Below, in pieces: positions 3,752 through 42,135 of a DNA stretch of 64,000 nucleotides. The position numbers and the translations under genes were made by a program. How positions within the stretch are numbered: the first letter of the stretch is position 1; the number at the start of each line of letters is the position of its first letter. The notes below the pieces were generated by a model, which was not told where the DNA came from, searched no databases, and saw only the letters and a list, made by a program, of their open reading frames with translations. The stretch spans positions 2,037-66,036 of the forward strand of contig CANLUT010000007.1 of NCBI GenBank assembly GCA_947494335.1, read 5' to 3'. The stretch is from Oligoflexales bacterium (GTDB lineage Bacteria; Bdellovibrionota_B; Oligoflexia; Oligoflexales; RGVZ01).

Positions 3752-3759
3752 TCTTGCTC

Positions 3760-6276: not shown

Positions 6277-6304
6277 CCTCTAGTTACCTCAATCGTTTCC
6301 AAAG

Positions 6305-6331
6305 TTATCGGCGCTGCCTCAATGGCCTTGA
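6305..6331 (-). promoter_or_regulatory. sigma28 (FliA)-type promoter for the S41 protease
   Basis: Minus strand TCAA-N15-GCCGATAA, ~30 nt upstream of ATG. Confidence 0.75.
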
Positions 6332-6434
6332 CGCTAGGTGGAAAAGAGGACTCTTTTTGAGGTTTTCTCAAAATCGTAATTACCCGTTATTATTGATATC
6401 AAATAGATTTCTTGCTTTTTCTTAAAGTTACTCC

Positions 6435-6461
6435 TCAATTTCGGCCGACACCTACCGATTC
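6435..6461 (+). promoter_or_regulatory. Possible sigma28-type promoter for the TPR protein
   Basis: TCAA-N15-ACCGATTC. Confidence 0.45.
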
Positions 6462-6514
6462 GTTCCTGTGAGGGAACTGAAGGCAACGGATATGCCTTCG
6501 AGAAGGGGCCAAGA

Positions 6515-9206: not shown

Positions 9207-9223
9207 AATTGTTCCTGCAAGAG

Positions 9224-9466
9224 TTACAGACCGAGACGTTGTCCGATCCTGGACACTAAATTACCCAAGCAATCGTCTACTGACTTACCGCTGACGGACT
9301 CAACAAAGCTATTGCGATCCGTAGAATGCTCTCCGTGGCCTGTGAAGGTCCCATCACTGAATTCGTCGATTTCTAATTGATAAGTCACGCCCTTCACCAT
9401 GTAAGTGAAGTTGTGGACTTTGAATAACTTGCCCCCGGCGTGAACTTTAATATCTTTCCATGACAT
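9224..9466 (-). CDS. Hypothetical protein (80 aa)
   Basis: Clean ORF with AGGAG RBS upstream, co-oriented with the NamZ gene 17 nt downstream. Confidence 0.7.
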   Translation of the reverse strand: MSWKDIKVHAGGKLFKVHNFTYMVKGVTYQLEIDEFSDGTFTGHGEHSTDRNSFVESVSGKSVDDCLGNLVSRIGQRLGL

Positions 9467-9599
9467 GAGGATTGTCTCCTGGGAATTTTTTGCTTGTGCT
9501 GATCAAACTATTAATGACTTTTAGAACTGACCTCTAGTTTACGTTATTTGGACATATCTAGTCCATAAACCGGCAAGATTTCAGTAACATGCATCATCC

Positions 9600-9629
9600 T
9601 TGCTGTATTGAGTCGTCTTTTGGTAAGAT
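9600..9629 (+). promoter_or_regulatory. sigma70 promoter (extended -10) for candidate ncRNA
   Basis: TTGCTG-N18-TAAGAT preceded by TGn. Confidence 0.5.
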
Positions 9630-9633
9630 AGTA

Positions 9634-9820
9634 ATGAGGTCACAAAGACCTCATAGACTATACGTCTAGGAAAGGAGGTGGTGCTGTGGGTTGTTGTAAA
9701 CAAAACCCTAGTAGCGCGGAGGTGCGTGTCTCTTAGCTGAGACATCGGACCTGAAAGCTACCAACCGGCTCCCCTCCTTTCACAAATGGTTTCTTGATGG
9801 GGATGCCGGTTGCTCTTTTT
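9634..9820 (+). ncRNA. Candidate structured small RNA (or small-ORF mRNA)
   Basis: Promoter, then four hairpins, GAAAGGAGGTG, and a terminator containing CCTCCTTTC; no ORF >=60 aa in the region. Confidence 0.55.
9762..9820 (+). terminator. Intrinsic terminator of candidate ncRNA
   Basis: CAACCGGC-TCCCC...GGGGA-T-GCCGGTTG stem followed by CTCTTTTT. Confidence 0.65.
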
Positions 9821-9948
9821 CCACCCCTCCTCATCCCTATATGTCGCCCTATTAGACAGTGTGGACCTTTTAGCCATCCCAAGACCGCTTCAATTGATAT
9901 AACTATCTAATATAACTTAATAAATTTTCATAAGCTTTCCTTATTTTA

Positions 9949-9964
9949 TGGCACTGCTCTTGCA
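9949..9964 (+). promoter_or_regulatory. sigma54 (-24/-12) promoter for the M14 peptidase
   Basis: TGGCAC-TGCTC-TTGCA, exact consensus spacing, preceded by an AT-rich tract. Confidence 0.8.
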
Positions 9965-9990
9965 ATCATACAGGCAAGGAGCCTAATGCC

Positions 9991-11016
9991 GTGACCTACT
10001 TGAAGACTAAAACAACATGTCAAAGCCGCACGATTATTACCGTGCTCCTGGCTAGTCTTTTTTTGGTTTATGGCAACGCCTACGGCAAAGATGGTTTCGG
10101 ACTGGACGAATTTAAAAGGCCGGCTGAAGTTATAACCAAACCGGCTCAACCATATCGAACAAAGTTTGGTAACCCGATTCATGTCTATACGATTAAAAAT
10201 AGCGATAACAACCAAGACGCCTCAACCGTGCGCTTTTTGATCCAAGGTGGCCTACATGGAAACGAACTACTCGCAAGTGAGTACGTAGGCTGGCTAGCAA
10301 AAAGATTTGCAAAAGGAGAGAGCCTCCTCAATACGATCAACTCGGGTAATGTAGAAATCGATTTCATTCCATTTGCAAATCCGGACGGTACAATTCAATT
10401 CACGCGTTACAATGGAAATAAGATCAATCTAAATAGAAATTTTGGTGTTCTCTGGGGAACTACCAAGGAAAACCCTGGGCCAAAAGCATTTAGCGAGAGT
10501 GAGACAAGGGCTATCCGCGATCTTTTAACAACTCGTAACTATGCTGGTTCAATAGACGTCCACGGCTATGTGAATTGGGTCGTAATTCCAACTTCACCAA
10601 ACGATGGACTTCAGGGACTCCCTACCGTCAATAAAACAAGGGTTGAGGCCTATGAGAAATGGAGAAAGTCCGTTGAACGTGAAACAACTAAAACAATGCC
10701 TGGCTACCAAGTAAAAACTGCCGGTGCATTAGGTGATGGCGGTGCCTTTGAAGATTATGCATGGTGGGGCGCTGGCGTTCCCTCTGCTTGTCTTGAGGTC
10801 TTTTCGGAAGAACGTTACATCGCGAAGACATTAGCAGGAAAAGTATTTGACTGGATCACGCCGAGTATTTTTACGCGCAACAGAGCCGATGCCAGCATGA
10901 CAGACACTTTCCTGATATATGAGTCTTACATGCATGGGCTTTTTATGGAGGCTCTGAAGCTACGACCTGAAGGTTCAGGAAACAAAGAGCTGGCCGGCGA
11001 TATTTTAAAGAAATAA
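9991..11016 (+). CDS. Secreted M14 family zinc carboxypeptidase
   Basis: Signal peptide; GGLHGNE (HxxE), NPDG, RYNGNKINLNRNF, FSESET, IDVHG, CLE. Confidence 0.88.
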   Translation: MTYLKTKTTCQSRTIITVLLASLFLVYGNAYGKDGFGLDEFKRPAEVITKPAQPYRTKFGNPIHVYTIKNSDNNQDASTVRFLIQGGLHGNELLASEYVGWLAKRFAKGESLLNTINSGNVEIDFIPFANPDGTIQFTRYNGNKINLNRNFGVLWGTTKENPGPKAFSESETRAIRDLLTTRNYAGSIDVHGYVNWVVIPTSPNDGLQGLPTVNKTRVEAYEKWRKSVERETTKTMPGYQVKTAGALGDGGAFEDYAWWGAGVPSACLEVFSEERYIAKTLAGKVFDWITPSIFTRNRADASMTDTFLIYESYMHGLFMEALKLRPEGSGNKELAGDILKK

Positions 11017-11017
11017 T

Positions 11018-11875
11018 TCAGTTAAAATTTCCGTCAATTTTACTAGCGTAAAATTTCGGCAACGCAAACGCACCCGTCATCAAATCCAAGCTCAGATACT
11101 CAAGGCCTTTTTCAACTCGGCTAAAACGCGCTTTATCGAAGGACGCAGGCTCGATCGGCGACTGAGACGCCACTGTCCACGACCAACTTCCGCGGGGATA
11201 CGTCGGTATCGGAGCTACGTAGCTTTTTCTGTGTTTAAAACCGCCGCTGATGTTTCTATGGATACGCCCCAGTGCATCTTTAGTAAACCACGGGGATTCA
11301 CTTTGAGCAGCCATTAGACCTCCAGGGCGAAGTGCCGTAGCGACGTCGCGGTAAAACTCCCGGCTAAACAGTCCTTCTCCTGGCCCAATAGGATCGGTGG
11401 AATCCACCAATATGACGTCAATCTCCTCTTTCAGCTCTTTGATAAATGCAATTCCGTCACCGACACGTACCTTTACGCGCTTGTCGACACCTGGATTCAA
11501 ACAATTTGCCACATGCGGGAAAAACTTTTTGCTTGCATCAATGACCATGGCATCGATCTCGCAAAGAATCACTTCTTCTACTTCTGGATGTTTTAATATC
11601 TCTCTGACCGTACCACCATCGCCGCCACCAATAACGACCACGCGACGTGGATTGTTGTGAAGACACAAAGGGATGTGGGAAATCATCTCATGATAGATAA
11701 ATTCATCGGCATCGGTAATCATGACCAAGCCGTCAAGAAGTAACATCGTTCCGTAGGCCTTGGTTTCAACAACGTCGACACGTTGAAACTCGCTTTTTCC
11801 ACTGAAAAGAACTTCCGTTACAGCCCATCCAGTTCGGATATGATCACTCTCTTGCTCGGTTACCCACAGATCCAT
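11018..11875 (-). CDS. speE: Spermidine synthase (polyamine aminopropyltransferase)
   Basis: LLLDG, DEFIYHEM, VVIGGGDGG, DSTDPIGP, PTYP. Confidence 0.95.
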   Translation of the reverse strand: MDLWVTEQESDHIRTGWAVTEVLFSGKSEFQRVDVVETKAYGTMLLLDGLVMITDADEFIYHEMISHIPLCLHNNPRRVVVIGGGDGGTVREILKHPEVEEVILCEIDAMVIDASKKFFPHVANCLNPGVDKRVKVRVGDGIAFIKELKEEIDVILVDSTDPIGPGEGLFSREFYRDVATALRPGGLMAAQSESPWFTKDALGRIHRNISGGFKHRKSYVAPIPTYPRGSWSWTVASQSPIEPASFDKARFSRVEKGLEYLSLDLMTGAFALPKFYASKIDGNFN

Positions 11876-11908
11876 GAATTAATCCCTCAAATCAGACCAC
11901 AAACTTAA

Positions 11909-12439
11909 TTAACGACGCTTTTTTTCCTGATTGCGGACATATTCAAGGAATGCCGCCTTATCTTGCAGAAGGTCCATAGCATTAGCATGCTGGCGAGCCT
12001 GTCTCTGAAGTTTTTTCTGAGCCTGGCGATTTCCACCCTGCTGAAATTGGCTACGGTGTTGCTGATGACCCTGCTGGGAGTTCCCACTGGCGACATTGCC
12101 ATTAACATTGCCATTTTGGGGATTCCTATTGAAGTTACCCTGATTGCCGCCGCGCATTGTATGCTTCCGCTCCACGATCTCCCAAGCGCGTAACACGACT
12201 CCCTCGGCTAGAAGTTCGGAGATAAGCTCATCAATGGTCACACCCTCTTCGCGAGCGTTATCCCGAAGCTTCCTGTGCAGATTCTTCGAAATACGAATCG
12301 TCAGGTTCTCTGGCAGCGGCTCTGGCGCCTCATCAAGAACCTCTTCGAGCTCCTCGTCCTGCACATCGCGAGTAACCTGATGATTAGATGTATCAATGCG
12401 GTTTCCGCGATTATCAGCGTCCTGATTAAACTTAGCCAT
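11909..12439 (-). CDS. Ribbon-helix-helix (HicB C-terminal-like) protein with Q/N/G-rich tail
   Basis: LTIRISKNLHRKLRDNAREEGVTIDELISELL matches the RHH pattern; low-complexity NQGNFNRNPQNGNVNG...QQ. Confidence 0.65.
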   Translation of the reverse strand: MAKFNQDADNRGNRIDTSNHQVTRDVQDEELEEVLDEAPEPLPENLTIRISKNLHRKLRDNAREEGVTIDELISELLAEGVVLRAWEIVERKHTMRGGNQGNFNRNPQNGNVNGNVASGNSQQGHQQHRSQFQQGGNRQAQKKLQRQARQHANAMDLLQDKAAFLEYVRNQEKKRR

Positions 12440-12554
12440 AATGGATCCTTAAGATTTGGGCCGAATCTGGCCCGTTTGTTCCGAGCCTACGCTCGATCAC
12501 GTGTGGTGTCGTTCAGCTTAAACTGAAACCTGAGTTAAAATTTTGACTCTTAAA

Positions 12555-13892
12555 TCAATTTGTTATTGGGTCATGCCAATGGGCCGAAACGGCTTGAAAA
12601 TCCGTGAACCCATCATGTGCCTGATTTGACAGGGCTACGTCAAGCGCAAAATCATAAAGTCCCCGCTTAATCCCGGATATATCAATAAAAACAGCCACGC
12701 TTCCCGGACCATACTTTAACCACGGCCAACGACCACTCAGCTCCTGGTTTGAAAAGTCCTTCTCTAAAGCCAGATAAGGCGGAGGGGACTGTTTAAGCGC
12801 CTTTTCATCAACACGAACATTGGCCATAAAACTGCCAATTTTGCTGTGCCCTTTCACTGAAAAAACTCCGGAGGGACTGTGATCGAACGCCGTTTTCTTG
12901 AAGCCCTCATAACCTGGTCCAGATGCTGGCAAAAATTCTAAATTCGCATCAAGCGACCATGCGGCATCTTTTGAATACCTCAATATATAGGCCATTCCTG
13001 ATCCACGACTCAGGTAAGAGGATGGATCAAAAACAAATTCGATTTTTGTCGGGATTTGAAAATAGTCGTCATAAAACACGAGCTCACTGAATAGATGTAA
13101 GTTCAATGCTCCAAAAAATCGTCTTAGCTTTGCGCCGACCGCAACGATACTGCGCACTGGACCAGAGCGCCAAGACTCAACCTCTGATGTAAAATCTTTT
13201 TCACCAAAGTAAAAGGACGGCAGAACGAAGATTCGAGGGATCAGCGGCATTACAAACGAGCTACCTGCGAAGACCTGCTTTGGCCCGTCAGACGTTTTCA
13301 CCATAACGTCGCCAATCAACATCGGCTGCCCCGATCTAAACACATATTTATATTTTGAGGTTTCTACCTTTGATAAGGTTGGATCAAAAAGTGGCTGAAA
13401 AACGTCTTGCGTGGTAATACTTCTGACTTCTCCGATTAGGACTGAGCCCAAGTATGCGTCGCGCTCGCCGCAAAAATCAACACGTGCAAAATCGATTAGT
13501 GATGCTTTAAGATCTTTGGACAACTTCTTGCCATTGAATGGTTCACCTAAACTAGTCCCTTTGATGCTGAGCTCATCATTGTTGTCAAAAATCTCATCAT
13601 CAGTTCCACTCGTGAATGGTATCCCTCCCTCAAGAACATAGTTTTCATCAGCATTCACTTCATCGATCTGAATCGGTATCTTTGACCATTTTCCGGACCT
13701 AAATGTCCATCCCTGAATAGAATGGATAGATCGCCCCCGTAACCAAGACGCTCCTTTGATCACAACAGGAAATCGGAAGGTTTTTTGGGGTACACTGGTC
13801 GCCACGCAACCATCAGACTTGGCTAAAATCGGCATCGCATTGACTAGCGACACTATGTGAATCCATAAAACAGCAACCAGAAAGGTCTTCAT
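12555..13892 (-). CDS. Hypothetical exported protein
   Basis: 445-aa ORF with signal peptide; start overlaps the pepP stop (ATGA). Confidence 0.75.
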   Translation of the reverse strand: MKTFLVAVLWIHIVSLVNAMPILAKSDGCVATSVPQKTFRFPVVIKGASWLRGRSIHSIQGWTFRSGKWSKIPIQIDEVNADENYVLEGGIPFTSGTDDEIFDNNDELSIKGTSLGEPFNGKKLSKDLKASLIDFARVDFCGERDAYLGSVLIGEVRSITTQDVFQPLFDPTLSKVETSKYKYVFRSGQPMLIGDVMVKTSDGPKQVFAGSSFVMPLIPRIFVLPSFYFGEKDFTSEVESWRSGPVRSIVAVGAKLRRFFGALNLHLFSELVFYDDYFQIPTKIEFVFDPSSYLSRGSGMAYILRYSKDAAWSLDANLEFLPASGPGYEGFKKTAFDHSPSGVFSVKGHSKIGSFMANVRVDEKALKQSPPPYLALEKDFSNQELSGRWPWLKYGPGSVAVFIDISGIKRGLYDFALDVALSNQAHDGFTDFQAVSAHWHDPITN

Positions 13893-15199
13893 AGCCGTTC
13901 AACGTCAGCTATTTCTTTTGGAATAGACGCTGTTAGCACCTCGTTGCCAGTTGTGGTGATTAGAACGTCATCTTCGATACGAATGCCAATTCCTCGAAAT
14001 TCCTCCGGGACGGATTGATCAGTGGAATTGATGTAAATACCCGGCTCCACACTAAAATACATTCCAGGTTCAAACGGGATTGGGGTTTCGCCTTCTTTGT
14101 ACATACCTGCATCATGCACATCGAGGCCAATCCAGTGACTGATACCATGCGGGCAAAAATGCTTATGAATATTTTTCTGCAAAGCTTCGTCCACGGACTC
14201 TTTGATTAGACCGATATCAATTAGTCCCTTAGTTAAGGTCTTGAAAGCTGCGTCTTGTACATCAACCCAACTCGCTCCCGGTTTAGCCGCGGCGATAGCG
14301 TCCTTTTGTGACTGAAGGCAGATTGAGTAAAGAGACTTCTGAGCGGCACTAAACTTACCATTTATCGGAAAGGTTCTGGTGACGTCGGATGCATAGTTAT
14401 CGACTTGGCAACCGGCGTCGATCAGCAACAGTTCTCCGTCGCGCAAGGTCGCATTGTTATCACGATAGTGAAGAACACAGGCATTATTTCCGCCTGCTAC
14501 GATGGAGCCATAGGCCTCCATTTCTGCCCCGCCTTTTAAAAACTCGTGCAAAAGAGTGGCATGGACATCCCGCTCAGATTGACCGGGCTTCAACTCCTTC
14601 AACACGCGCGCGAAGGCACCTGACGTAATTTTTGCGGCAGCTTTCATACGCGCGACCTCGTCAGGACCTTTGCGAACACGGAGACTCCCACCAATGAGTG
14701 AAGGATCGGAAATGGTCAGCATTCCGGCTGCATTGCGAGCAGCCGTCGCACGATGTCGACGAAGTGCTTCTATAACTTTACGGTCAAAATCATGCCAAAG
14801 GCCTAAGGAATAAAATAAGCCCTGCGCACCGTTTAACAAGTTCGGTAATTTTTGCCACAAATCGTCCCAGGAGAAAGCCTCATCGATCGGCAGTTTTTCC
14901 TTGGCAGCGGCCACACCCAAGCGAAGACCATTCCAGAGTTCTGCATGAGGATCTTTGTCACGAAGAAATAAAATCACCCTTGGTTCCGAGGGTCCACGGT
15001 GAGAAAGAACTAATAGTGCTGCGTCTGTTTCACTAAATCCCGTCAGATAATAAAAAAGACCGTCCTGACGCCAAGGAGCTTCCACCGTGCTATTTCTATA
15101 CGCTTGGGGCTGAGCCATGATCAGCATAGCCTGGCCGTTAAGTTTTGAAATGACTTGATCAAGACGACGACGAAAGTTGATTTCCGGAAGAGACAGCAT
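13889..15199 (-). CDS. pepP: Xaa-Pro aminopeptidase
   Basis: FYYLTGF, LLIDAG, YASDVTRTFP, HGISHWIGLDVHD, VEPGIY, GIRIEDD; ATG 15199 has a GAGGA RBS. Confidence 0.93.
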   Translation of the reverse strand: MLSLPEINFRRRLDQVISKLNGQAMLIMAQPQAYRNSTVEAPWRQDGLFYYLTGFSETDAALLVLSHRGPSEPRVILFLRDKDPHAELWNGLRLGVAAAKEKLPIDEAFSWDDLWQKLPNLLNGAQGLFYSLGLWHDFDRKVIEALRRHRATAARNAAGMLTISDPSLIGGSLRVRKGPDEVARMKAAAKITSGAFARVLKELKPGQSERDVHATLLHEFLKGGAEMEAYGSIVAGGNNACVLHYRDNNATLRDGELLLIDAGCQVDNYASDVTRTFPINGKFSAAQKSLYSICLQSQKDAIAAAKPGASWVDVQDAAFKTLTKGLIDIGLIKESVDEALQKNIHKHFCPHGISHWIGLDVHDAGMYKEGETPIPFEPGMYFSVEPGIYINSTDQSVPEEFRGIGIRIEDDVLITTTGNEVLTASIPKEIADVERL

Positions 15200-15281
15200 A
15201 AAGGTCCTCGAAACTTTATTTAGAGACCTATTCAATCATCCAGGTCACTTTAGATCAACTAGGTAAGGCGGACTTAAGAGC

Positions 15282-15317
15282 AAAAGAAAGAGGGTACGCG
15301 GTGAACGCGTACCCTCT
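15282..15317 (-). terminator. Intrinsic terminator after the HU gene
   Basis: AGAGGGTACGCG-5nt-CGCGTACCCTCT perfect 12-bp stem, then TTCTTTT on the minus strand. Confidence 0.85.
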
Positions 15318-15348
15318 GCAATATACCTAAGAGTTCAAAAGGATGGAA

Positions 15349-15756
15349 TTATACCATTTCCTTAAGAGCTTTAAGAGCGCGAACCTTCACAACGTTGCGA
15401 GCAGGCTTAGCTTTGAAAACTTGCTCTTCGCCGGTGAATGGGTTGATGCCCTTGCGAGCCTTAGTAGCAGGCTTGTTAACGCGTGTGATCTTCATAAGGC
15501 CTGGAACTGTGAAGATACCTGGACCTTTCTTGCCCACATCGAGACCGATGACTTCGCCAAGAGCGTTGAAAAGTGCGCCAACGTCTTTGCGTGTCAAACC
15601 TGTGTTTTCAGCAAGAGCAGTCATGATTTCGCTCTTGGTGCGTGGCTTGTTAACAGCCTTCAACGCAACAGGTGATTTGTTGGTGTGTGCAGCAGCCTTT
15701 GCTTTTGGAGCTTTAGCTTTTGCGGTCTTCTTTGCGGTTGTTTTCTTCTTAGCCAT
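15349..15756 (-). CDS. HU/IHF-family DNA-binding protein with Lys/Ala-rich N-terminal tail
   Basis: TKSEIMTALAENTGLTRKDV, FTVPGL, KPATKARKGINPFTGE...KAKPA. Confidence 0.9.
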   Translation of the reverse strand: MAKKKTTAKKTAKAKAPKAKAAAHTNKSPVALKAVNKPRTKSEIMTALAENTGLTRKDVGALFNALGEVIGLDVGKKGPGIFTVPGLMKITRVNKPATKARKGINPFTGEEQVFKAKPARNVVKVRALKALKEMV

Positions 15757-15808
15757 TTAATGGGCCTCCCTGAAAATTTCATTCCGGAACAAATCGTTCC
15801 GACAAAAA

Positions 15809-15837
15809 ATCATAAAAGGCTGTATTTGAAAAATCAA
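15809..15837 (-). promoter_or_regulatory. sigma70 promoter of the HU gene
   Basis: Minus strand TTGATT-N17-TATGAT. Confidence 0.65.
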
Positions 15838-15883
15838 GTGTGTTCCCTCAAAAAAATGCATTTTTTTCGAGAAAAATGAATAT

Positions 15884-17659
15884 TCAGCTCGGAAGGGACA
15901 AAGAAACTGAATTCCAGCTCGCCGGATGTTCCACCATGAAGTGCACCAAACGAATTCGCAGATGGCGATCAAAAGTCTTGGAACCCAGTCTGCGCTGGAC
16001 GTCCATGACGAGCGCCTTGGTGTCTTCGTCCAAAGAGGAAATGTATTTCTGCTTGAGCTCTGTGTACGTGCTTGGGGATTGCCGGATCATTTTATCCAGT
16101 TCGTCCTGAGCCAAACGGCGCAAATTTTGAGCCAAAGTGACTTGTTTCTGCGATTTTGGGGGTTCAGGCTTGACAGTTAAGCTGTTTGCGGGCACCGATT
16201 CCGGAGTCTTTAACTCGTTTTTCGGCCATTTTTCCGCTGATTCAACAAACACTGATTCTTTTCTCGAGCGGTAGTCCATGACAGATTTTTTACAGACTGT
16301 CTCGATATCAGCCCGCAAAACCCCGGAGGCCAGCGAAAATTGCCCGTCATTCTTAACTGTGTAACGCAATTCCTCAGACCGTCCTGCCAAGGACAAAAAC
16401 TCGCGGTAACGCTGGGTGACGTTTGCCAAAGAAACACTCGAAACCACGTTGAAAATCGGATTTTTCATGATCACATCAGGAAGGGGGGCAAGGCAGCCAG
16501 GTTGGGATCTTGCAACCCACTCAATAAATAGCATCGGCGCCTGAGTCATTAAACCAGGACCCATAATAAAAGCGCCAGCGGACTCATCGGAAATCCGAGT
16601 CCAAATTCCCTCGAGAAGTTCGGAAACCTGCTTGGACTTTGCCGGACAAAGTCGAGCGAACGTTGATAAAAGCATACCCATCTGCGGTGTAAGGCCGTTT
16701 TTGACCACCTTAGTAGATGCTAAACCAAAATACTCCGATTCTGCACGCGATCTCAGTCTTTCCGATGATGCCTGCCACACCAAAAGAGGCGATTGCGACG
16801 AGATCCCATTTTCAAGGGCAACAAATCCGTTATCAGGCTCTCGCTGAATAACGCCATGGGCCGTCAGTCTTCGACCCAATTTTCCCACTAAACGCAAGCG
16901 ATCCATTAACAAAGTTGATGCCGTCTCCTGAGTTTTCTTGCCAAGTTTTACACCGGCCGTCAGCTCATCTAAAGGCGCTCCAACCAGTCCGTCGAGACCA
17001 AGCCATGCAGACTCATTTTGCATGGCTGATTCCATACGGGCATAAACCAACTGCTCAGACAACGACAGCTCCAGCCAAACCGGAGTCCAGAGAACCAGAG
17101 GAGATATACCTTTGTTTACTGAGGCCAAACTTGGCCCACCTGTAAGTCGCCTTATAAAATCAAGGTGAACATCTGTAAACCCAGTCAACAACTCCAGCGC
17201 GATAGACGTGGGTTTTAGCCTCAAATGGCTGAGCTCTGAACCGTTGGCATTGCCACTCCATGTTTCACTCTCAAAAAGTGGAAACACTCGAAATAACCCG
17301 GATTGATCTTGAATTGGAAATCGTAATTGAGCGAAAGATTCAAAGACTCCCGCCAACCGCTCTCTCGCTTGATAATCGATTCCATTCAACTGTTTTTGCG
17401 ATCTGCTCCAGTCCAACTCAACAAAGCCAGACATATTCTCATCCAAAAGTTGGCGCTGAACATCACCTAACAAGACCGCCAGGAGACTTAGCTCCTGAGA
17501 GCTAAATCGAGGCAGCACTCCTCCAGCACATAAGCGAACATCCGTCGACAAAGGATCAGCCGGAGAAAAAAGTGACTCAAACGCATGGAACCACCAACCA
17601 GGAACAAACGTTCTGGCAGTCTCAAGTTTTAGGGACGGACTGCTGTTTGGTGGGACCAC
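15884..17659 (-). CDS. Hypothetical protein, possibly with a Rep/TrfA-like tandem winged-helix N-terminal half
   Basis: 591-aa ORF with GTG start and GGAG upstream; fold assignment is pattern-based only. Confidence 0.6.
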   Translation of the reverse strand: MVPPNSSPSLKLETARTFVPGWWFHAFESLFSPADPLSTDVRLCAGGVLPRFSSQELSLLAVLLGDVQRQLLDENMSGFVELDWSRSQKQLNGIDYQARERLAGVFESFAQLRFPIQDQSGLFRVFPLFESETWSGNANGSELSHLRLKPTSIALELLTGFTDVHLDFIRRLTGGPSLASVNKGISPLVLWTPVWLELSLSEQLVYARMESAMQNESAWLGLDGLVGAPLDELTAGVKLGKKTQETASTLLMDRLRLVGKLGRRLTAHGVIQREPDNGFVALENGISSQSPLLVWQASSERLRSRAESEYFGLASTKVVKNGLTPQMGMLLSTFARLCPAKSKQVSELLEGIWTRISDESAGAFIMGPGLMTQAPMLFIEWVARSQPGCLAPLPDVIMKNPIFNVVSSVSLANVTQRYREFLSLAGRSEELRYTVKNDGQFSLASGVLRADIETVCKKSVMDYRSRKESVFVESAEKWPKNELKTPESVPANSLTVKPEPPKSQKQVTLAQNLRRLAQDELDKMIRQSPSTYTELKQKYISSLDEDTKALVMDVQRRLGSKTFDRHLRIRLVHFMVEHPASWNSVSLSLPS

Positions 17660-33268: not shown

Positions 33269-34333
33269 ATGCCGACCAAGGTCCTGCCATTTTTGGCTAT
33301 TGTGATGATCCTCGCCACAATTGAGACTGCGCCAGCAGCAAGCCGCTCTGCAGAAGCTCGGTCTGTAACTAAAAACAATCGTCTAACCAACGAGCCATCA
33401 GGTGTGATCTCCTTTGACAAACCAGTTATCGACTTTGGACTGGTTAAAAGAGGACAAAAACTACCAGCAAAATTTCCGTTCAAAAACATCGGAAAAGGAA
33501 CATTATCCGTTCAAGGGGTTCAGGCGTCTTGCAACTGTGCAACAGTGGACGCTGCGAAAGGCAAAGCATTTGCGCCGGGGGAAAGTGGTCTCATTGAAGT
33601 TTTGTTTGATACTACCGACTATTCCGGCAAAGTCTCAAAAGCAATCACAGTCATCACAAATGAACGATCAATGCCAGATCGCACCCTGACAATCACCGCT
33701 CTGGTAAATAGCGAGCTCGACGCAACACCGCCATTAGTAGACTTCGGCGACGTCGTACTCAACCAAACACCCCAACAGACCATAAGACTCAAAAACAATA
33801 TGAAAACCGAACTTAAAATTGAGCGTATTCGCTTCAATGAAGAGTTTCTTGATGTTGGCTATACTAAGGATGGCCGTGAGTTCACCATTTACGTTAAATT
33901 GAAGCCGACGGTACCAATTGGTTTTTTCAAAGATACTATATGGGTAAAAAATAATTCTGCATCGCTCCCCGAGATGCCAATTCCAATTCGCGCGTCAATT
34001 CGAGGTCAGATCTCTGCTAGCCCGGCCTACATTGAGTTTGGATCAGTGTCCGCGAATGAAACAGCTGCCAGACAAATCGCGCTTCGAGCCTCGAAAGAGT
34101 TTGAGATTACGGATAACTCTGTTGAATTGAATGTCAACGGCAGCAAAGCCGATGATGGTCAGAAGCTCATAAAGATCAGTGTGCAGCAGGTAGATAAGAC
34201 CGGCAAAAACATATCACTCGAACTAAAAAATCCAGGAAACAAATCCGGAAGCGTTCACGGTAAAATCACCCTTCAGACCAATAATCCCCAGCAGAAGAAT
34301 TTGGTAGTAGACTTTTACGCGTTCTTCCGCTGA
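33269..34333 (+). CDS. Exported DUF1573 (Ig-like repeat) protein
   Basis: Signal peptide; FPFKNIG...VQASCNCA...PGESG; repeated 'DFG' Ig-like modules. Confidence 0.85.
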   Translation: MPTKVLPFLAIVMILATIETAPAASRSAEARSVTKNNRLTNEPSGVISFDKPVIDFGLVKRGQKLPAKFPFKNIGKGTLSVQGVQASCNCATVDAAKGKAFAPGESGLIEVLFDTTDYSGKVSKAITVITNERSMPDRTLTITALVNSELDATPPLVDFGDVVLNQTPQQTIRLKNNMKTELKIERIRFNEEFLDVGYTKDGREFTIYVKLKPTVPIGFFKDTIWVKNNSASLPEMPIPIRASIRGQISASPAYIEFGSVSANETAARQIALRASKEFEITDNSVELNVNGSKADDGQKLIKISVQQVDKTGKNISLELKNPGNKSGSVHGKITLQTNNPQQKNLVVDFYAFFR

Positions 34334-35780: not shown

Positions 35781-37325
35781 TTATCGGCGATTTTTTTTGC
35801 GAGCGTCTTTGGCGGCCTTGCGCATTTTCTTTAACTTTTCACGATCAACTTTCTTGGGAGTCGCAGCGCCCAGACCACCACCAAAAAGATCACCCATTCC
35901 ACCCATTCCACCAGGTAATCCACCCTGGCTCATCATGTTTTGTGCCATTTTCCGCATATTATTGAGCTGACCTAGGCCACCCATTCCTGGAATTTTACCA
36001 AGCATGCCACCAAAACCTTTGCCCATCATCCCCATCATTTGCCGCATGGATTTGAAACGCTTAATCACATCATGAACGTCATTGGGCTTTGTTCCGCTGC
36101 CTTTGGCAATACGACGAATGCGGTTATCATTGAAAACTGCTGGATTTACTCGCTCTTGCTCAGTCATGGAGTCAATCATGGCCTTAACCTTGACAAGCTC
36201 ACGATCATCCAAATTAGCTTCCTTAGGCAGCATGCCCTGCATCGGCAGCTTTGCCATAATATCTTTCAAAGAGCCCATCTGCTGAATCATGGACAGCTGA
36301 TTGTAAAAATCTTTGAAATTAAATTGCCCTTCGAGCATTTTGAGCATCTCGGCTTCTTTGTCGCCTGTGTGAACACGCTCAAAGTCCTCCATGAGGCCAA
36401 TGACATCTCCCATGCCTAAAATTCGGCTGGCAAGACCCTCCGGTCTAAACTCCTCAAGGCGCGCGAGATCTTCTCCCATACCGAGAAATTTCAGAGGCTT
36501 TCCCGTCACGCGTCGAATACTAAGCGCCGCGCCACCTCGGGTATCACCATCGAGTTTCGTCATGACGACGCCTGAGATATCCAAGCGATCATTGAATGAT
36601 TTGGCAGTTGTTACTGCATCCTGGCCCATCATCGCATCACAGACAAAAAAGATGTTGTCGGGTTTTGCCAGAGCCTTAATATCGTCAAGCTCCTGCATCA
36701 ACTCGCTGTCAATTGTCAGTCGACCAGCCGTATCCAACAGCACGACATCACATCCGAGCTCAAACGCTTTCTGAATGGATTTTTCGCAAATTTCTTGGGG
36801 CTTAGCGCCGTCAACGTGGAAAACAGGAATTTCCAGCTTTCGACCAAGGACTCTCAATTGTTCAACGGCCGCTGGACGATAGACGTCAGCTGCAACCAAT
36901 AATGGCTTTCGCTTAAACTTTGTCATCAAATAGTTTGCAAGCTTACCAGTTGTCGTCGTCTTACCACTTCCCTGTAAGCCCACCATCATAATGGTTGTGG
37001 GACGATTGACGGCAAAACGAATAGACGCGTCGGGTTCACCCATCAGAGCTTCGAGCTCTTTTTTACATATCTGTACGAAATGATCGGCAGGTGTGACGCG
37101 AACCCGTTCAGATCCTGATCCAGCGCGAACTTGAACAGTCTGACCCAACGCCTCAGACTTCACTTTGCTCAAGAAGTCCTTGGCGACCCCATACTCAACA
37201 TCGGCTTCAAGAAGACTCTTACGAATCTCTCCTATTGCCTCATTAATGTTTTCTTCCGTCAGAGTTGCTTTGCCAGTGAACTTTTCGCGAGCGACACGAA
37301 AGCCATCACTCAAAATATCAAGCAT
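35781..37325 (-). CDS. ffh: Signal recognition particle protein
   Basis: LLEADV, GLQGSGKTTT, DTAGR, TKLDGDTRGG, RILGMGD, RRIAKGSG. Confidence 0.97.
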   Translation of the reverse strand: MLDILSDGFRVAREKFTGKATLTEENINEAIGEIRKSLLEADVEYGVAKDFLSKVKSEALGQTVQVRAGSGSERVRVTPADHFVQICKKELEALMGEPDASIRFAVNRPTTIMMVGLQGSGKTTTTGKLANYLMTKFKRKPLLVAADVYRPAAVEQLRVLGRKLEIPVFHVDGAKPQEICEKSIQKAFELGCDVVLLDTAGRLTIDSELMQELDDIKALAKPDNIFFVCDAMMGQDAVTTAKSFNDRLDISGVVMTKLDGDTRGGAALSIRRVTGKPLKFLGMGEDLARLEEFRPEGLASRILGMGDVIGLMEDFERVHTGDKEAEMLKMLEGQFNFKDFYNQLSMIQQMGSLKDIMAKLPMQGMLPKEANLDDRELVKVKAMIDSMTEQERVNPAVFNDNRIRRIAKGSGTKPNDVHDVIKRFKSMRQMMGMMGKGFGGMLGKIPGMGGLGQLNNMRKMAQNMMSQGGLPGGMGGMGDLFGGGLGAATPKKVDREKLKKMRKAAKDARKKNRR

Positions 37326-37400
37326 TCAAGGCTCCTTTAGTTCAGCCAGACTATGCCACCTAAAAATCTCAAAAATCCCAGTAATGTCCGAGATTAGGAC

Positions 37401-37429
37401 CGTATAATGGGATTCGTTTGTAACGTCAA
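37401..37429 (-). promoter_or_regulatory. sigma70 promoter of ffh-miaB
   Basis: Minus strand TTGACG-N17-TATACG. Confidence 0.55.
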
Positions 37430-37473
37430 TAAAAAGGGTCAAAAGGGGGGCGTTTTGCGCCTCCTCGAGCTCA

Positions 37474-38598
37474 CTAAAATCCTGAATTTAACACCTTAAA
37501 AAACAGCCCAGATGCGTCAGCCAGGATTTTTTGGCGCCACCGGCTATCTTGCGGAAAAAAAAGATTTTTAAGGTGCCTCGACGCCTTGGAATCAGGTCCA
37601 ATTTTACCCCTTAGCCAAGCGCCGCGCTCAGATCTCAAACCACGTAACACTCTAAAATCATTATAGGTACCAAATTCCTGTAAAATATAGCGAACTTTCG
37701 ACTTTGGAAAGGCCTGGTAAATGAGGTTTGAAAAGCTACCAAAAGACCTATAAGTCGAGCGGCCCTCGATCTCGTCCAAGGTCAGCTTCACGTTCAGTTG
37801 CCGCTGCATCAGCTGAAGATCACCTTGTTCCGCGACTTCCGTCGAAAAAAGTGCCTCAAACCCATAGGGTCCAAGTCCCGTGTGAATGTCGACGGCGAAC
37901 ACTCGTTGAACATCAGAAAAATTTTGCTCAAAGAAATTTTTGAGTCGTGACAACTCCGGTTGCCATTTATCTCCGCCGTAGAAAAAACCATCGGCATAAT
38001 GATACTGGCCACCTGAAAGCCCCTGCATCAAAAATTGCTTTCCTCGCCGAATAGTCATTGCCGCTAAACGCAACCAGCAAAGCCAGCGGCGCCAGGACTC
38101 GTCGGTTAGGATCTGATGCACCTGATGGTAGGCCCTACCATCAGGCAAATTGTCTCCGGTTAGAAACGCATTACGATTTAAATCAACATTATCTGCATTG
38201 TTTCGTCGAAGCCAACTCATGCCATAAGCGTTCACGGTATGAACGAACACGACGCGAATCCGCGGTAATGCGTCAATTCGCCCCGACTTTTTTAGTGCAG
38301 AGAGCTCCCTAAGAATTTGCAGCTGAGCTGCACTCCCAGCAAAGCCTTCCACTCCATGCACACCGGACACATGTAAAAAAAGATCAGATGGAGAGTTTTT
38401 AGACGAATGTCCCAGCAAAACTGTCCCAATACCAATTGAGAGACTTTCACCGCCTGGACCTTTTTGTCCAAGGTCGAGGCTTTGAAACTCGCCACCAATT
38501 TCACCAATACTTAATATGAAAGCTTTGCGTGCGTCCGACCATGAGTCAAAACACACACCACCCGTCTTTTCATTCATCAGAGAAAACCTTCTCACCAC
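37474..38598 (-). CDS. DUF2817 / M14-like metallopeptidase
   Basis: SGVHGVEGFAGS, HTVNAYG, RRNNADNVDLNRN, DIHTGLG, EFGT; start 38598 or 38577. Confidence 0.85.
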   Translation of the reverse strand: MVRRFSLMNEKTGGVCFDSWSDARKAFILSIGEIGGEFQSLDLGQKGPGGESLSIGIGTVLLGHSSKNSPSDLFLHVSGVHGVEGFAGSAAQLQILRELSALKKSGRIDALPRIRVVFVHTVNAYGMSWLRRNNADNVDLNRNAFLTGDNLPDGRAYHQVHQILTDESWRRWLCWLRLAAMTIRRGKQFLMQGLSGGQYHYADGFFYGGDKWQPELSRLKNFFEQNFSDVQRVFAVDIHTGLGPYGFEALFSTEVAEQGDLQLMQRQLNVKLTLDEIEGRSTYRSFGSFSNLIYQAFPKSKVRYILQEFGTYNDFRVLRGLRSERGAWLRGKIGPDSKASRHLKNLFFPQDSRWRQKILADASGLFFKVLNSGF

Positions 38599-40172
38599 TG
38601 CTTAATGGAGAGATTACGCGACGATCCCCACGCAATCTCACCCGAAGTTGTAGGCGTGTTTTCCTCATCTACATCTTCAGAGTCAAGCGGATTCGGAGGC
38701 AGAACATGAACTTTGTATTGATATTTTCCATGGGGCAAACGAAGAAGCTTGGATTGGCCATTGTCTAACACAAACTCAGTCTCTGAACTAAGTGACTGCT
38801 GCAAATAGCGTGACAAGGACGCCACTTCCTTATTCTCATCATCTTCGTGCTCATAAATAAAACCACACTCAAAATTGAATCCCTCACCGGTGAGTTTCAT
38901 ACCATCTGCGATTCTCATCAGGCCCCAAGATTCAGCAAACAACGGATGCCAACACATGTCGGAACGCGCTGCAGCAACAATCGGCGCGACTGTAACGTGT
39001 TTAGGCTTCACATCAGTTTGCCGGTGTCCCTTTTTTCGAGCCACTCGTCGCGCCAGACGCTTTGGCTGATCGTCACGGTCTGAGCGACCAAGATATTTTC
39101 GCGCCTCGGCAACCAGGCGGTCAGAAACCTCATTATCTGGCGAGATCGTGACGCGAAGAGGCTGACGTGACGTGTCTTCAGCACGTCCAGGAATGACATC
39201 CGAGGGAATCCTCACACTTAATACGCCGACACGACTGATTCCCTCATAGAGCTCACGTAACATCGCTAATTCCTGGGTACCTTTAGCCAATCCGTATAAT
39301 GCAGCCTGACGTCGCAAATCACCTTGACCTGAGCACAAAGCATTCTGCCATCGCCTTGAGGTCATCACTACTGGAAGCTCTTCGGGAAGACTAAACTGGA
39401 GGATCTTGCAAAACTTTGCGAAGCCTTCATCGTTGGACATGTAGGTCGCCGTTTTTGCAAGCGTGGCGACGACTCCGGTACGTCTCGCTAAAATGTAGGG
39501 CTGTCTGCTCCATTTCCTGATCATTGATTTTTGAAAATCTTCTGTTTTAACAAGCGCTGGCTGGGGAAGTAAAGAATCCAATGTACACTTTGCTGTTTGT
39601 CCCACGACTTCAATAGCCTGGCAGTCCGGGATCATCTTCACCATCACATCTTTGACAACAGCTCGAAGAGGGGCTAACGATTCTTCACTTACAACTAAAA
39701 AATTGCCCCGATAACCTCGCATGCTCTCACATGCCGTTTGTTTGATTTCTTGTGGCATTACGAAGCCTGTGACTTTAGATTCGGAGTCTTCAATAGTCAC
39801 AACAGAAATATGACCAGCGTCCTCCTCGAGGACCATGTCATATCCGACACCCAAAACATGAAGGGTTGTTCGGAATGAAAACTTCTGATCAATGCAAGAC
39901 CGCGCATTCATCAGCACAAAAGCAGAAGCAGATGGATTATTCGAGGAGCGGATTTCGATCCAATTTTCTTTGACCGGGTCAACAATTGATATCAACTTGG
40001 ATTTTTTTTCAGCTTCCGGAGACGTTGACTCGCGCGTCACCATCCCAGGATCAGTGGAGTTAGGCATATGACTCGAGCATGACGCTCCGGTCATCATCAT
40101 GAATAGTAGAAATGGGGAAATAGAATGCTTAGCGGCGCTCAATCTTTTGAACGGCGAAAATGACTTTTTCAT
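38592..40172 (-). CDS. Hypothetical Cys-rich lipoprotein
   Basis: GGAGG RBS; MKKSF...LLFMMMTGASC lipobox-like; several Cys residues in the mature part. Confidence 0.75.
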   Translation of the reverse strand: MKKSFSPFKRLSAAKHSISPFLLFMMMTGASCSSHMPNSTDPGMVTRESTSPEAEKKSKLISIVDPVKENWIEIRSSNNPSASAFVLMNARSCIDQKFSFRTTLHVLGVGYDMVLEEDAGHISVVTIEDSESKVTGFVMPQEIKQTACESMRGYRGNFLVVSEESLAPLRAVVKDVMVKMIPDCQAIEVVGQTAKCTLDSLLPQPALVKTEDFQKSMIRKWSRQPYILARRTGVVATLAKTATYMSNDEGFAKFCKILQFSLPEELPVVMTSRRWQNALCSGQGDLRRQAALYGLAKGTQELAMLRELYEGISRVGVLSVRIPSDVIPGRAEDTSRQPLRVTISPDNEVSDRLVAEARKYLGRSDRDDQPKRLARRVARKKGHRQTDVKPKHVTVAPIVAAARSDMCWHPLFAESWGLMRIADGMKLTGEGFNFECGFIYEHEDDENKEVASLSRYLQQSLSSETEFVLDNGQSKLLRLPHGKYQYKVHVLPPNPLDSEDVDEENTPTTSGEIAWGSSRNLSIKQW

Positions 40173-40623
40173 GAAGACCTCCAACCTCTGGATTGCCGGC
40201 TTCTACAGTCCACGCAACAGGCTGCGACATGCGCAACGTGTGACGAGCAACTTCAACACCCTCAGCATTTTCAGAGATCAGAGTGACATCTTTCAAACCA
40301 GTATTTCCTCTCATCAGAGAGTTGGCCCAAAGATACAACGAAGGATCCGTTACAAAATCGCGACTGAGCTCAACGCGAGCGTGCTCGGAAGAACCTATCG
40401 ACGCTCCTAAGCCGTCGATGTCCGCGACTGGACTAAACGCACCGTAATTTACGCCCTCAATCTCCACCACCATTCGTGATGCTTTGCCGGAGAAACTAGC
40501 GGGCAATCGCTGAGTCGCTGCGATTGGAACCAATAACATGGCAAGTAACAATAAGTTCGCAATTCTGACTTTGCGACTTGAAGAGGTGTCTAAATTGAAT
40601 TGGCGCAAGAGGCGCACTTTCAT
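40129..40623 (-). CDS. Phage tail-tube (T4 gp19 / eCIS Afp1-5-like) homologue with N-terminal signal/TM segment
   Basis: VVEIEG...GAF...VELSR...DPSLYLW...LKDVTL...EGVEVARHTL...PVAW...EKVIFAV follows the gp19-family pattern; hydrophobic IANLLLLAMLLVPIAA after basic residues. Confidence 0.72.
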   Translation of the reverse strand: MKVRLLRQFNLDTSSSRKVRIANLLLLAMLLVPIAATQRLPASFSGKASRMVVEIEGVNYGAFSPVADIDGLGASIGSSEHARVELSRDFVTDPSLYLWANSLMRGNTGLKDVTLISENAEGVEVARHTLRMSQPVAWTVEAGNPEVGGLHEKVIFAVQKIERR

Positions 40624-40755
40624 CCCCTGATTGAATTCTGTTACTGATAACTGAGGTTACAAATAAATTCTAACACCCACTATCAAAAAACACCAGATCC
40701 CCACTCAAAAAAACTTGACAGCCCATTTTTTAAACCTTCCAGGATCTTGACTGGG

Positions 40756-40782
40756 TTATCGACAAGATCTCAAGAAAGTTTA
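40756..40782 (-). promoter_or_regulatory. sigma28-type promoter for the tail-tube-like operon
   Basis: Minus strand TAAA-N15-GTCGATAA overlapping the ridA stop. Confidence 0.65.
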
Positions 40783-41153
40783 GCTATCACATCAATTTCC
40801 ACGTTTACATCGCGCGGCAATCTGGCCACTTCCACCGTAGCTCTGGCCGGAAACGGTTGTGGGAAGAAGCTTCCGTAGACTTCATTGACCACCGAAAAAT
40901 TATTCATGTCTTTGAGAAAAATGGTGGTTTTTACAACGTCACCAAAACCTCCACCAGCAGCCTCAAGTATGGCTTTGAGGTTTTCCAGGACTTTTTTGGT
41001 TTCGTCAGCAACTCCTGACTTAACGAGCTCGCCCGTCTTTGGATCCAAAGGGATTTGACCCGAAACAAATAGGAGATCCCCGGCGCGAACAGCTTGGGAA
41101 TAGGGACCTATAGCGGCTGGAGCATTTGCGGTTTGAATGACTTGTTTTTTCAC
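40770..41153 (-). CDS. ridA: RidA family reactive intermediate deaminase
   Basis: [43 protein letters not shown]. Confidence 0.93.
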
Positions 41154-41268
41154 GTCTCACCTCACGGTTTTAACTTGGCACTTTGCTCAAAAAACAACGT
41201 ATTTGGAGTCCATTCATAGTGACTTTAACAAAAACAAAAAACAATACATTTATTCAATAGATTCAAGG

Positions 41269-41297
41269 TTGTAATCCCGAAGGCTTGTTCCTATAAT
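41269..41297 (+). promoter_or_regulatory. sigma70 promoter of lgt
   Basis: TTGTAA-N17-TATAAT. Confidence 0.7.
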
Positions 41298-41369
41298 AGG
41301 CAGCCAAGTGATCAACAAAAAGCTGCACTCTTTCACTAATTGGGCCAAAAAACGGGGGCTCGGCTTACT

Positions 41370-42135
41370 ATGACGTTTCCTCAAATCAATCCGGTTTTCT
41401 TCTCCATCGGTCCCTTTGAACTTCGATGGTATAGCCTAATGTACGTCATCGGGCTGCTAGCCGTTTATTTCTTCTTCAGATATGCATCTCGCAAAGGCAC
41501 ATTGAAATTAACGCACCAGGAAATTGAATCCGTCATGCTTGTTGGCATGATAGGCATGATTCTTGGCGCGCGATTGGTCTATGTGTTTGTCTACAACTTC
41601 GACTTCTATATTGAACGTCCCAATGAAATATTCGCCACGTGGCGTGGGGGCCTATCGTTTCATGGCGCAATCCTTGGCATCGCCATTGCCTTACTGATCT
41701 ATTCAAAACAAAAAAACAAAAGCTTCTTCAACATCACTGATCACATGGTGACTATTGCCCCCGTAGGTCTCGGTTTTGGAAGAATAGGAAACTTCATTAA
41801 TGGCGAACTCTGGGGGCGCGTGACCGACGCTCCTATCGGAATCATCTTTCCAGACGCAGGGCCGTCACCGAGACATCCCTCTCAGCTTTACGAGTCCATG
41901 TTTGAAGGCTGGATTCTTTTAGCCATCATGTTTCTTTTCTATAGCAGAAGGCCTCGAACTGGAGTGCTGTCTGCAGTCTTTCTGATTGGTTACTCTACGT
42001 TTCGCTTCTTTATAGAGTTCTTCCGAGAGCCTGACAAACAGCTTGGAGAAGTACTGGGTCCGTTTAGTATGGGACAGGTCCTTTGTGCGATCATGTGGGT
42101 CATCGGCGCGATGATTCTGACCTATTCCCTAAATT

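Follow-up and report, generated by a model that had tools for sequence, protein, structure and literature searches.

Can the inner-tube protein of a contractile injection system (CIS) be kept by a bacterial lineage that lacks the machine, and, if so, in which compartment would it act? The question is raised by a gene in a 64,000-nucleotide stretch of DNA from an Oligoflexales bacterium (contig CANLUT010000007.1, positions 2,037 to 66,036; the whole stretch is called the window in the following). The original prediction saw in this gene an orphan tail tube of the gp19/extracellular CIS (eCIS) type, furnished with an export signal. The open reading frame (ORF) listing contains the gene as claimed, and its parts, all on the minus strand, are as follows:

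40129..40623, minus strand: tube-like gene, 164 amino acids (aa) from ATG 40623, stop codon at 40129-40131 (ORF listing and sequence)
40498..40623, minus strand: predicted Sec signal peptide, residues 1-42, made up of a basic n-region, LLLLAMLLVPIAA as h-region and TQRLPA as c-region (rule-based)
40132..40497, minus strand: tail-tube/Hcp-fold domain, residues 43-164 (hhalign, Foldseek and VIA-align, the latter with Z ∼10 to Hcp5, the Pvc tube and Afp1)
40381..40434, minus strand: short loop and small helix (69-75) in place of the canonical long β-hairpin, residues 64-81 (hhalign gap, alignment and structure model)
40324..40362, minus strand: invariant or nearly invariant stretch RDFVTDPSLYLWA, residues 88-100 (alignment and predicted secondary structure)

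The answer favored here, with a probability of roughly 0.6, is that the gene encodes a domesticated tube fold that would be exported via Sec and work in the cell envelope, usually together with a lipoprotein encoded by the overlapping downstream gene.

That the C-terminal ∼120 residues are homologous to CIS inner-tube proteins and share their fold is established. The identity is settled because the family as a whole carries it, in profiles as well as in structure matches, whereas the window protein alone stays below threshold: PF06841 matched residues 77-141 with 21.6 bits (E 2e-4; Pfam cut-off 28.2 bits), the NCBIfam model CIS5_fam gave 16 bits (cut-off 260 bits), so that the curated cut-offs were not reached, and TIGR02241 (NCBIfam) did not match. 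Across the 31 aligned relatives that make up the family alignment, PF06841 was matched at E ≤ 0.01 by 27 (best E 2.7e-9), and hhalign aligned the family profile with that of 18 canonical tubes from CIS loci over 119 columns (99.1%, E 7.7e-19). The AlphaFold2 (AF2) model of the tube-like protein (predicted local distance difference test score, pLDDT, 86.6; predicted template-modeling score, pTM, 0.70) has the tail-tube β-sandwich fold with one flanking helix, according to both Foldseek and VIA-align. With Foldseek, 20 PDB chains reached E ≤ 1e-3, eCIS tubes ranking first (7aeb_Y, E 1.8e-5, then 9qgl and 6rao), and BFVD yielded phage tail-tube proteins, 28 of them at E ≤ 1e-3. VIA-align wide, a structure search independent of Foldseek, was run against 48,161 PDB representatives; the best 50 matches listed were Hcp, CIS-tube or phage tail-tube chains without exception, two of them Hcp1 fusion constructs. 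The highest score was that of 7yw0, Hcp5 of Bacteroides fragilis (Z 10.4, 102 residues aligned, root-mean-square deviation 2.9), next to 6bdc, Hcp1 of Flavobacterium johnsoniae (Z 10.3, 106 aligned, 3.1), and the Pvc tube 6j0b (Z 10.2, 123 aligned, 3.5). Sequence searches of the PDB, irrespective of whether the single protein or the profile was used, gave weak tube matches (9qgl, E 0.07-0.23; Afp1, E 0.95); the oxidoreductase and Cys-loop channels that also surfaced there are chance matches. PHROGs yielded only matches with E of at least 0.17. With respect to the homology originally proposed, profile comparison and both structure searches agree.

The gene is real, conserved and under strong purifying selection. 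A word-indexed search for homologues produced 147 candidates, of which 69 qualified as relatives (E ≤ 0.01); where the source names them, they are called "hypothetical protein", and a precomputed PF06841 match accompanied 10 of the 69. The ratio of nonsynonymous to synonymous substitution rates (dN/dS), calculated against L004, the closest usable orthologue (more distant pairs were saturated or had undefined dS), was 0.069 overall, 0.083 for the domain and 0.039 for residues 2-49, so the N-terminus is translated. Since a GGGG (40624-40627) lies 6 nucleotides (nt) upstream of GTG 40617, though directly before ATG 40623, and since many orthologues are 162 aa long, GTG 40617 is more likely the start codon, with a predicted product of 162 aa; the choice between the two has no effect on any later result. 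Antisense ORFs over the gene, e.g., 40099..40410 on the plus strand, were without support. No other run of invariant or nearly invariant positions in the family is as long as RDFVTDPSLYLWA, in which R88, F90-D93, S95, L96, W99 and A100 are invariant and P94, Y97 and L98 nearly so; in the AF2 model, it spans the end of the strand 82-91 and the start of the helix 95-106.

The machine to which such a protein would belong is missing. The original prediction noted no sheath or baseplate gene within the 64 kb, and this now extends to the whole genome (3.34 Mb in eight contigs, 97.3% complete, 1% contaminated), which holds no CIS elsewhere. PF04984 (sheath), PF04865 (Baseplate_J) and PF05943 (TssC) had no match in it, PF04965 (gp25) nothing beyond E 0.25, and PF05638 (Hcp) a sole match (E 0.0175) at another place than the tube-like gene, which in turn was the only match to PF06841. 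Thus, the gene is not encoded together with sheath, gp25-like or Baseplate_J-like genes, and, despite the fold similarity (Z 10.4), its product does not belong to Hcp/TssD as defined by a PF05638 match and core genes of a type VI secretion system (T6SS) such as that for TssC.

The distribution of the gene is that of a core gene. The family profile found it in 90 of 95 genomes of the order Oligoflexales (57 of the 58 of high quality; 40 of 44 genera), in one copy per genome, the two matches in one genome (G040) lying in one frame. A sheath match was obtained in 12 of the 95 and was absent from 83; in the genus of the window, none of 13 genomes had a sheath match and all 13 had the tube-like gene. 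Outside the order but within the class, one of 29 genomes gave a match, a weak one (E 1.7e-6), and the protein matched is a canonical tube of 142 aa whose gene has a sheath gene and another tube gene for neighbors. Among reference genomes, spirochaete tubes of 141-142 aa come next, with 25-31% identity; in the one such spirochaete cluster examined (L064), gp25, Baseplate_J and two sheath genes stand beside the tube, and sheath genes likewise adjoin the canonical relatives in L083, L085 and L166. (The L064 cluster, at 2813-16144, contains the nearest canonical tube and also encodes DUF1257, P2 gpI-like tail, FHA-domain and VWA-domain proteins.) The family loci (n = 54) are labeled Oligoflexales, Oligoflexus or Pseudobacteriovorax, some being evident mislabels. 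Because of the order-wide distribution, the rarity of sheath genes and the canonical nature of the nearest relatives outside the order, the tube-like gene derives from a CIS tube, is specific to the lineage and vertically maintained in it, and is not a stray machine part. Its domestication, which the original prediction had suggested, is strongly supported, because conservation is order-wide, single-copy and syntenic.

Where, then, would the protein reside? Its N-terminus was assessed by rule, the pattern for signal peptidase I being a positive n-region, an h-region of ∼7-18 residues, a small residue at −1 and a small or aliphatic one at −3. An uncharged run of 14-18 residues, usually containing proline, was present in 31/31 relatives and was preceded by net positive charge in 29/31 (all 31 have either a basic n-region or a short N-terminus). 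Ala42 is the only invariant column before the first strand, which fits the −1 position of a putative signal peptidase site, and the residue at −3 is L (23 relatives), I (3), S (4) or T (1), i.e., small or aliphatic throughout. In the AF2 model, residues 13-37 form a helix. Cleavage is proposed between A42 and S43, with A37|T38 as the alternative candidate. These features point to Sec-dependent export and are in line with the export signal originally claimed; a reading in which translation begins at the downstream Met51 fails, because position 51 is not kept as Met in deeper relatives. Less fortunate was the idea that RxPAS is a motif that generally follows signal peptides: among 2,131 candidate frames (frames of the genome, taken from stop to stop, whose N-terminus is first basic and then uncharged), R.PA[SG] or LPA[SG] occurred in six, and by inspection the other five had no signal-peptide-like context. 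The LPA of the family superficially resembles YLPA, YLPT or HLPT in the N-terminal region of some canonical tubes; since the two are spaced differently from the first strand, by ∼6 residues, nothing is concluded from it.

The second departure from canonical tubes lies in the hairpin region. Opposite the canonical VIEYQ.GDD...RK.PG, hhalign placed a gap of 14 residues in the window protein and of 12 in the family consensus; direct alignment counted 10 residues after the conserved GL in the window protein, ∼17 in deep-branching members of the family and 27 in spirochaete CIS tubes. Thus, the window protein lacks the long β-hairpin (EY.eGG...kxPG) of canonical tubes, and the deletion is real, family-wide and most extreme in the clade of the window. 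In canonical tubes, this hairpin extends the inner barrel to the next ring and mediates ring-to-ring contacts. The deletion of a stacking hairpin as originally predicted therefore stands, but it is no proof that stacking was lost: because compact Bacteroidota Hcps still form T6SS tubes without the hairpin, a loss of stacking along with it is only plausible.

The tube-like gene is not alone. Its surroundings, again on the minus strand, comprise:

38592..40172, minus strand: partner lipoprotein precursor, 526 aa, ATG 40172, lipobox Cys codon at 40077-40079
40129..40182, minus strand: coupling region; the 3′ end of the tube-like gene here contains GGAGG (40178-40182), the Shine-Dalgarno sequence, and ATG 40172 of the lipoprotein gene
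40770..41153, minus strand: RidA gene, conserved upstream neighbor (PF01042, E 9.7e-46)
35781..37325, minus strand: ffh/SRP54 gene, conserved downstream neighbor (Pfam and synteny)
37474-38598, minus strand: DUF2817 (M14 carboxypeptidase-like) gene, an insertion between the lipoprotein gene and ffh in the genus of the window, so placed only in L003 and L004 among related loci

The tube-like and the lipoprotein genes overlap by 44 nt, and the lipoprotein ATG follows 5 nt after GGAGG; judging from this arrangement, the two are translationally coupled. In the 38 loci compared, the tube stop codon is followed 34-109 nt later by the lipobox Cys codon, so the signal peptide of the lipoprotein starts either inside the tube gene or just where it ends. 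The label "orphan" in the original prediction thus holds only insofar as no injection machinery is present; the coupled, conserved lipoprotein gene had been missed. In all 38 lipoprotein orthologues examined, with L006 counted after a correction by hand, a hydrophobic leader runs up to a small residue and the lipobox Cys, as expected of a lipoprotein, and the window itself contains an lgt gene. Asp after the lipobox Cys (+2) is absent from all N-termini listed; by the +2 rule of Escherichia coli, lipoproteins without Asp at this position are directed to the outer membrane. Besides the lipobox Cys, seven further Cys are invariant in the alignment, a set that would fit a disulfide-forming, extracytoplasmic lipoprotein in an oxidizing compartment.

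The lipoprotein belongs to no known family or fold among the databases searched. Pfam found no family common to more than one of 39 members, a PDB profile search just talin (E 0.27), Foldseek no match at E ≤ 1e-3 for the AF2 model (pLDDT 84, pTM 0.81), and the ESM Atlas no usable match for either the whole protein or residues 385-495. Only a helical segment, residues 170-282, was matched by VIA-align wide; its best match, a designed cage, reached Z 9.6, which is below the level that is meaningful for helical bundles, and was discarded. The lipoprotein profile matched 82 of the 95 Oligoflexales genomes, beside the tube gene in every placed case compared. When the genes of the window were compared by BLAST with loci L003-L056, the order RidA, tube, an ORF of ∼450-570 aa, Ffh and radical-SAM methylthiotransferase was found throughout (loci matched: tube, 66, canonical relatives included; large ORF, 49; RidA, 49; Ffh, 33; methylthiotransferase, 31), and the RidA gene was upstream of the tube gene in all loci listed in the synteny comparison. 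A scan of 37300-41400 for promoters and terminators stayed at chance level and did not delimit an operon, and a complex prediction for lipoprotein residues 33-495 with tube residues 38-164, run without controls, scored 0.01 and gave no answer. Three loci are arranged differently: in L164 (G011), RidA, tube and Ffh follow one another with no room for a lipoprotein gene; in L162 (G046), the tube gene lies between mutL and a MurD-like gene without the lipoprotein; and in L165 (G048), it is followed by an unrelated lipoprotein-like ORF of 247 aa without a Pfam family. Farther off in the window, a DUF1573/HYDIN-type Ig-like gene (33269-34333, plus strand) adjoins the radical-SAM methylthiotransferase gene, and this neighborhood is kept in 24 related loci.

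Tube domains behind a leader are also found elsewhere. An exhaustive profile search of 1.84 billion representatives gave 248 matches with E ≤ 1e-3, and for 97 E was ≤ 1e-10. Outside the family proper, many of the weaker matches, via the tube domain only, start with a signal peptide or a lipobox (e.g., P0183, P0182, P0175, P0172, P0197 and P0210) and keep the full hairpin. The same kind of leader was seen in three of 80 metagenome loci fetched by a hairpin-motif pattern, L082, L086 and L090. The genes for these leader-bearing PF06841 tubes lie, all on the plus strand, at 7905-8414 in L086, 2796-3305 in L082 and 571-1131 in L090, and others occur among P0166-P0210. Hairpin-bearing leader tubes pass the Pfam cut-off with 97.7-115.1 bits, and of 10 clusters looked up, three bore the source name "phage tail-like protein". 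Neighbors of L086 are feoB, two ankyrin lipoprotein genes and a histidine-kinase gene, that of L082 is an FG-GAP protein gene, and no sheath gene was seen at either locus. The L086 tube is 21% identical to the window protein and 78% identical to the leaderless L083, whose gene adjoins a sheath gene; it would thus be a recent offshoot of a sheath-linked tube, and the gain of an export signal appears to be evolutionarily easy. Because leader-bearing tubes occur in unrelated lineages, and because L086 is so close to leaderless L083, such a gain is recurrent. In addition, seven long proteins of 335-991 aa (P0151, P0165, P0168, P0174, P0186, P0196 and P0205) contain an internal or C-terminal tube domain, several of them behind an N-terminal signal peptide; in these long proteins, the tube fold may have been joined to exported domains of another kind.

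The favored reading can be put as a sequence of steps. An ancestor of the Oligoflexales would have captured a tube gene of the PF06841 type, which then gained a Sec signal peptide, lost 10-17 residues of the hairpin and settled between ridA and ffh as a single-copy core gene. The precursor would be exported by Sec and probably cut by signal peptidase I after Ala42, whereupon a compact, Hcp-like domain of ∼122 residues would fold outside the cytoplasm. There, in the periplasm or at the outer membrane, it would act with no sheath, baseplate or spike to assist it, its companion in most lineages being the coupled Cys-rich lipoprotein, which, having no Asp at +2, would be directed to the outer membrane by the E. 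coli rule and would either tether the tube domain or be bound by it. As for the surface through which the tube domain might bind its partner, the strand-helix segment RDFVTDPSLYLWA is the likeliest candidate. The domain may form hexameric rings or short stacks or may stay monomeric, and a role as ring, conduit or carrier is purely conjectural.

Several observations weigh against this reading. The window protein itself scores below the Pfam and far below the NCBIfam cut-offs, and the signal call rests on rules. The loss of the hairpin is compatible with stacking, given that the compact Bacteroidota Hcps of 120-123 aa, the top structural matches, do without it as well. The lipoprotein is not universal, its profile having no match in 13 of the 95 genomes, and because L164 and L162 keep the tube gene without it, the tube domain can work on its own. 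Finally, Leu at −3 (23/31) and Pro at −2 of the candidate site do not make up the commonest context for signal peptidase, and the segment might remain as an anchor. In that event, an uncleaved signal anchor (N-in, C-out) would keep the tube domain attached to the inner membrane on its outer face, an arrangement to which the single long helix 13-37 of the AF2 model, the unusual residues before Ala42 and an uncharged run of up to 18 residues in some members would all conform. However, a transmembrane helix is normally longer than such a run of 14-18 residues with a Pro inside, an invariant Ala42 with always L, I, S or T at −3 is what a cleavage site would conserve, and a second small-residue site (AA, SS or VA) follows at the end of the run; retention as an anchor is therefore considered rather unlikely.

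The same predicted signal could lead the protein farther, to the cell surface or beyond, as a surface ring, an adhesin scaffold or vesicle cargo with the lipoprotein as its dock in the outer membrane. The lack of Asp at +2 in the lipoprotein (outer-membrane type by the E. coli rule) and the fact that CIS and T6SS tube proteins normally end outside the cell would agree with this, but none of the loci has a secretion-system gene linked to the pair and nothing sets this proposal apart from a periplasmic location, so it is held to be improbable. The recurrence of exported tube-like proteins in unrelated lineages might also suggest a decoy or sensor in the envelope against attack by phages or CIS, an exported tube fragment disturbing incoming tail tubes. 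Defense genes, however, are patchy and mobile, whereas the tube-like gene is a single copy at a fixed housekeeping position, inherited vertically throughout the order, with a dN/dS of ∼0.07 and no flanking defense genes, which makes such a function very improbable indeed. Least credible, and largely refuted already, is that the gene is an ordinary tube gene that has moved away from a CIS or prophage located elsewhere in the genome, or that the start was miscalled so that no signal exists. The weak PF06841 match and the sheath genes in 12/95 Oligoflexales could be cited in its favor. Yet the 97.3%-complete genome has no sheath, baseplate or TssC match, the genus has the tube-like gene in 13/13 and a sheath in 0/13 genomes, and CIS-bearing Oligoflexales have one family match each (in G040, two in one frame); the conserved N-terminus, the purifying selection and the non-conservation of Met51 speak against a miscalled start.

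Textbooks describe tail-tube and Hcp proteins as parts of contractile machines that are put together in the cytoplasm. A clear tube homologue kept through the whole history of an order, with an export signal and without the machine, therefore implies a second, envelope-side use of the fold. If this is true, two genes would gain a defined role, one for a "hypothetical protein" and one for a lipoprotein family of ∼500 residues with no known fold, and the pair would serve as a marker for Oligoflexales. Taken with the signal-bearing tubes of other lineages, it suggests that phage-tail parts have been recruited into the bacterial envelope more often than recognized. A bolder version, possible but doubtful at present, is that Sec-exported tube folds form an unrecognized class of envelope component: in Oligoflexales, the protein would be a core part of the envelope that defines the lineage and could take the form of a periplasmic ring or short conduit docked to a new-fold outer-membrane lipoprotein, with neither sheath nor contraction, and the same exaptation would have been repeated in other phyla. 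Because the cultured Oligoflexus tunisiensis carries the tube and lipoprotein pair (L054), the favored reading is directly testable.

How does the tube-like protein compare with known systems? A search of the literature brought up no description of tail-tube or Hcp proteins that are exported or carry a signal, and none of this family or gene pair. One article (PMC11937823) mentions PF06841 with Oligoflexales, yet its subject is the canonical eCIS tubes of Myxococcota. The CIS tube family itself is known; what appears to be new is a conserved tube fold of the exported type whose gene overlaps that of a Cys-rich lipoprotein. With the inner tubes of eCIS and other CIS (Pvc1, 6j0b; Afp1, 6rao; those of Algoriphagus and Streptomyces; PF06841, CIS1_fam/CIS5_fam and TIGR02241), the window protein shares a homologous domain of the same fold and the motifs VEIDG...G.F, L.R...D..L..W, P..W and E.I. 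In contrast to them, it has a signal-like leader, lacks 10-17 residues of the hairpin and is encoded in a housekeeping locus coupled to a lipoprotein gene, in a genome without sheath, baseplate or spike. Cytoplasmic assembly without an export signal, a feature of CIS tubes, is not what its family suggests, given the signal-like N-terminus in 31/31 relatives. The compact Hcp/TssD proteins of Bacteroidota (7yw0 and 6bdc) are its best or tied-best structural matches, are of similar size once the signal is subtracted and likewise have no long hairpin; however, identity to them is 8-9%, PF05638 does not match and the genome has no TssC. Hcp, moreover, is cytoplasmic and without a signal. The tubes of the L086 type differ in that they keep the full hairpin, score above the Pfam cut-off, are 21% identical to the window protein and have no LIPO530-type partner seen beside them. 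What the window protein has in common with L086, L082, L090, P0183, P0182, P0175 and P0172 is a tube domain placed behind a Sec-type signal or a lipobox, in L086 and L082 as a tube gene that, like the one described here, stands alone without a sheath gene nearby.

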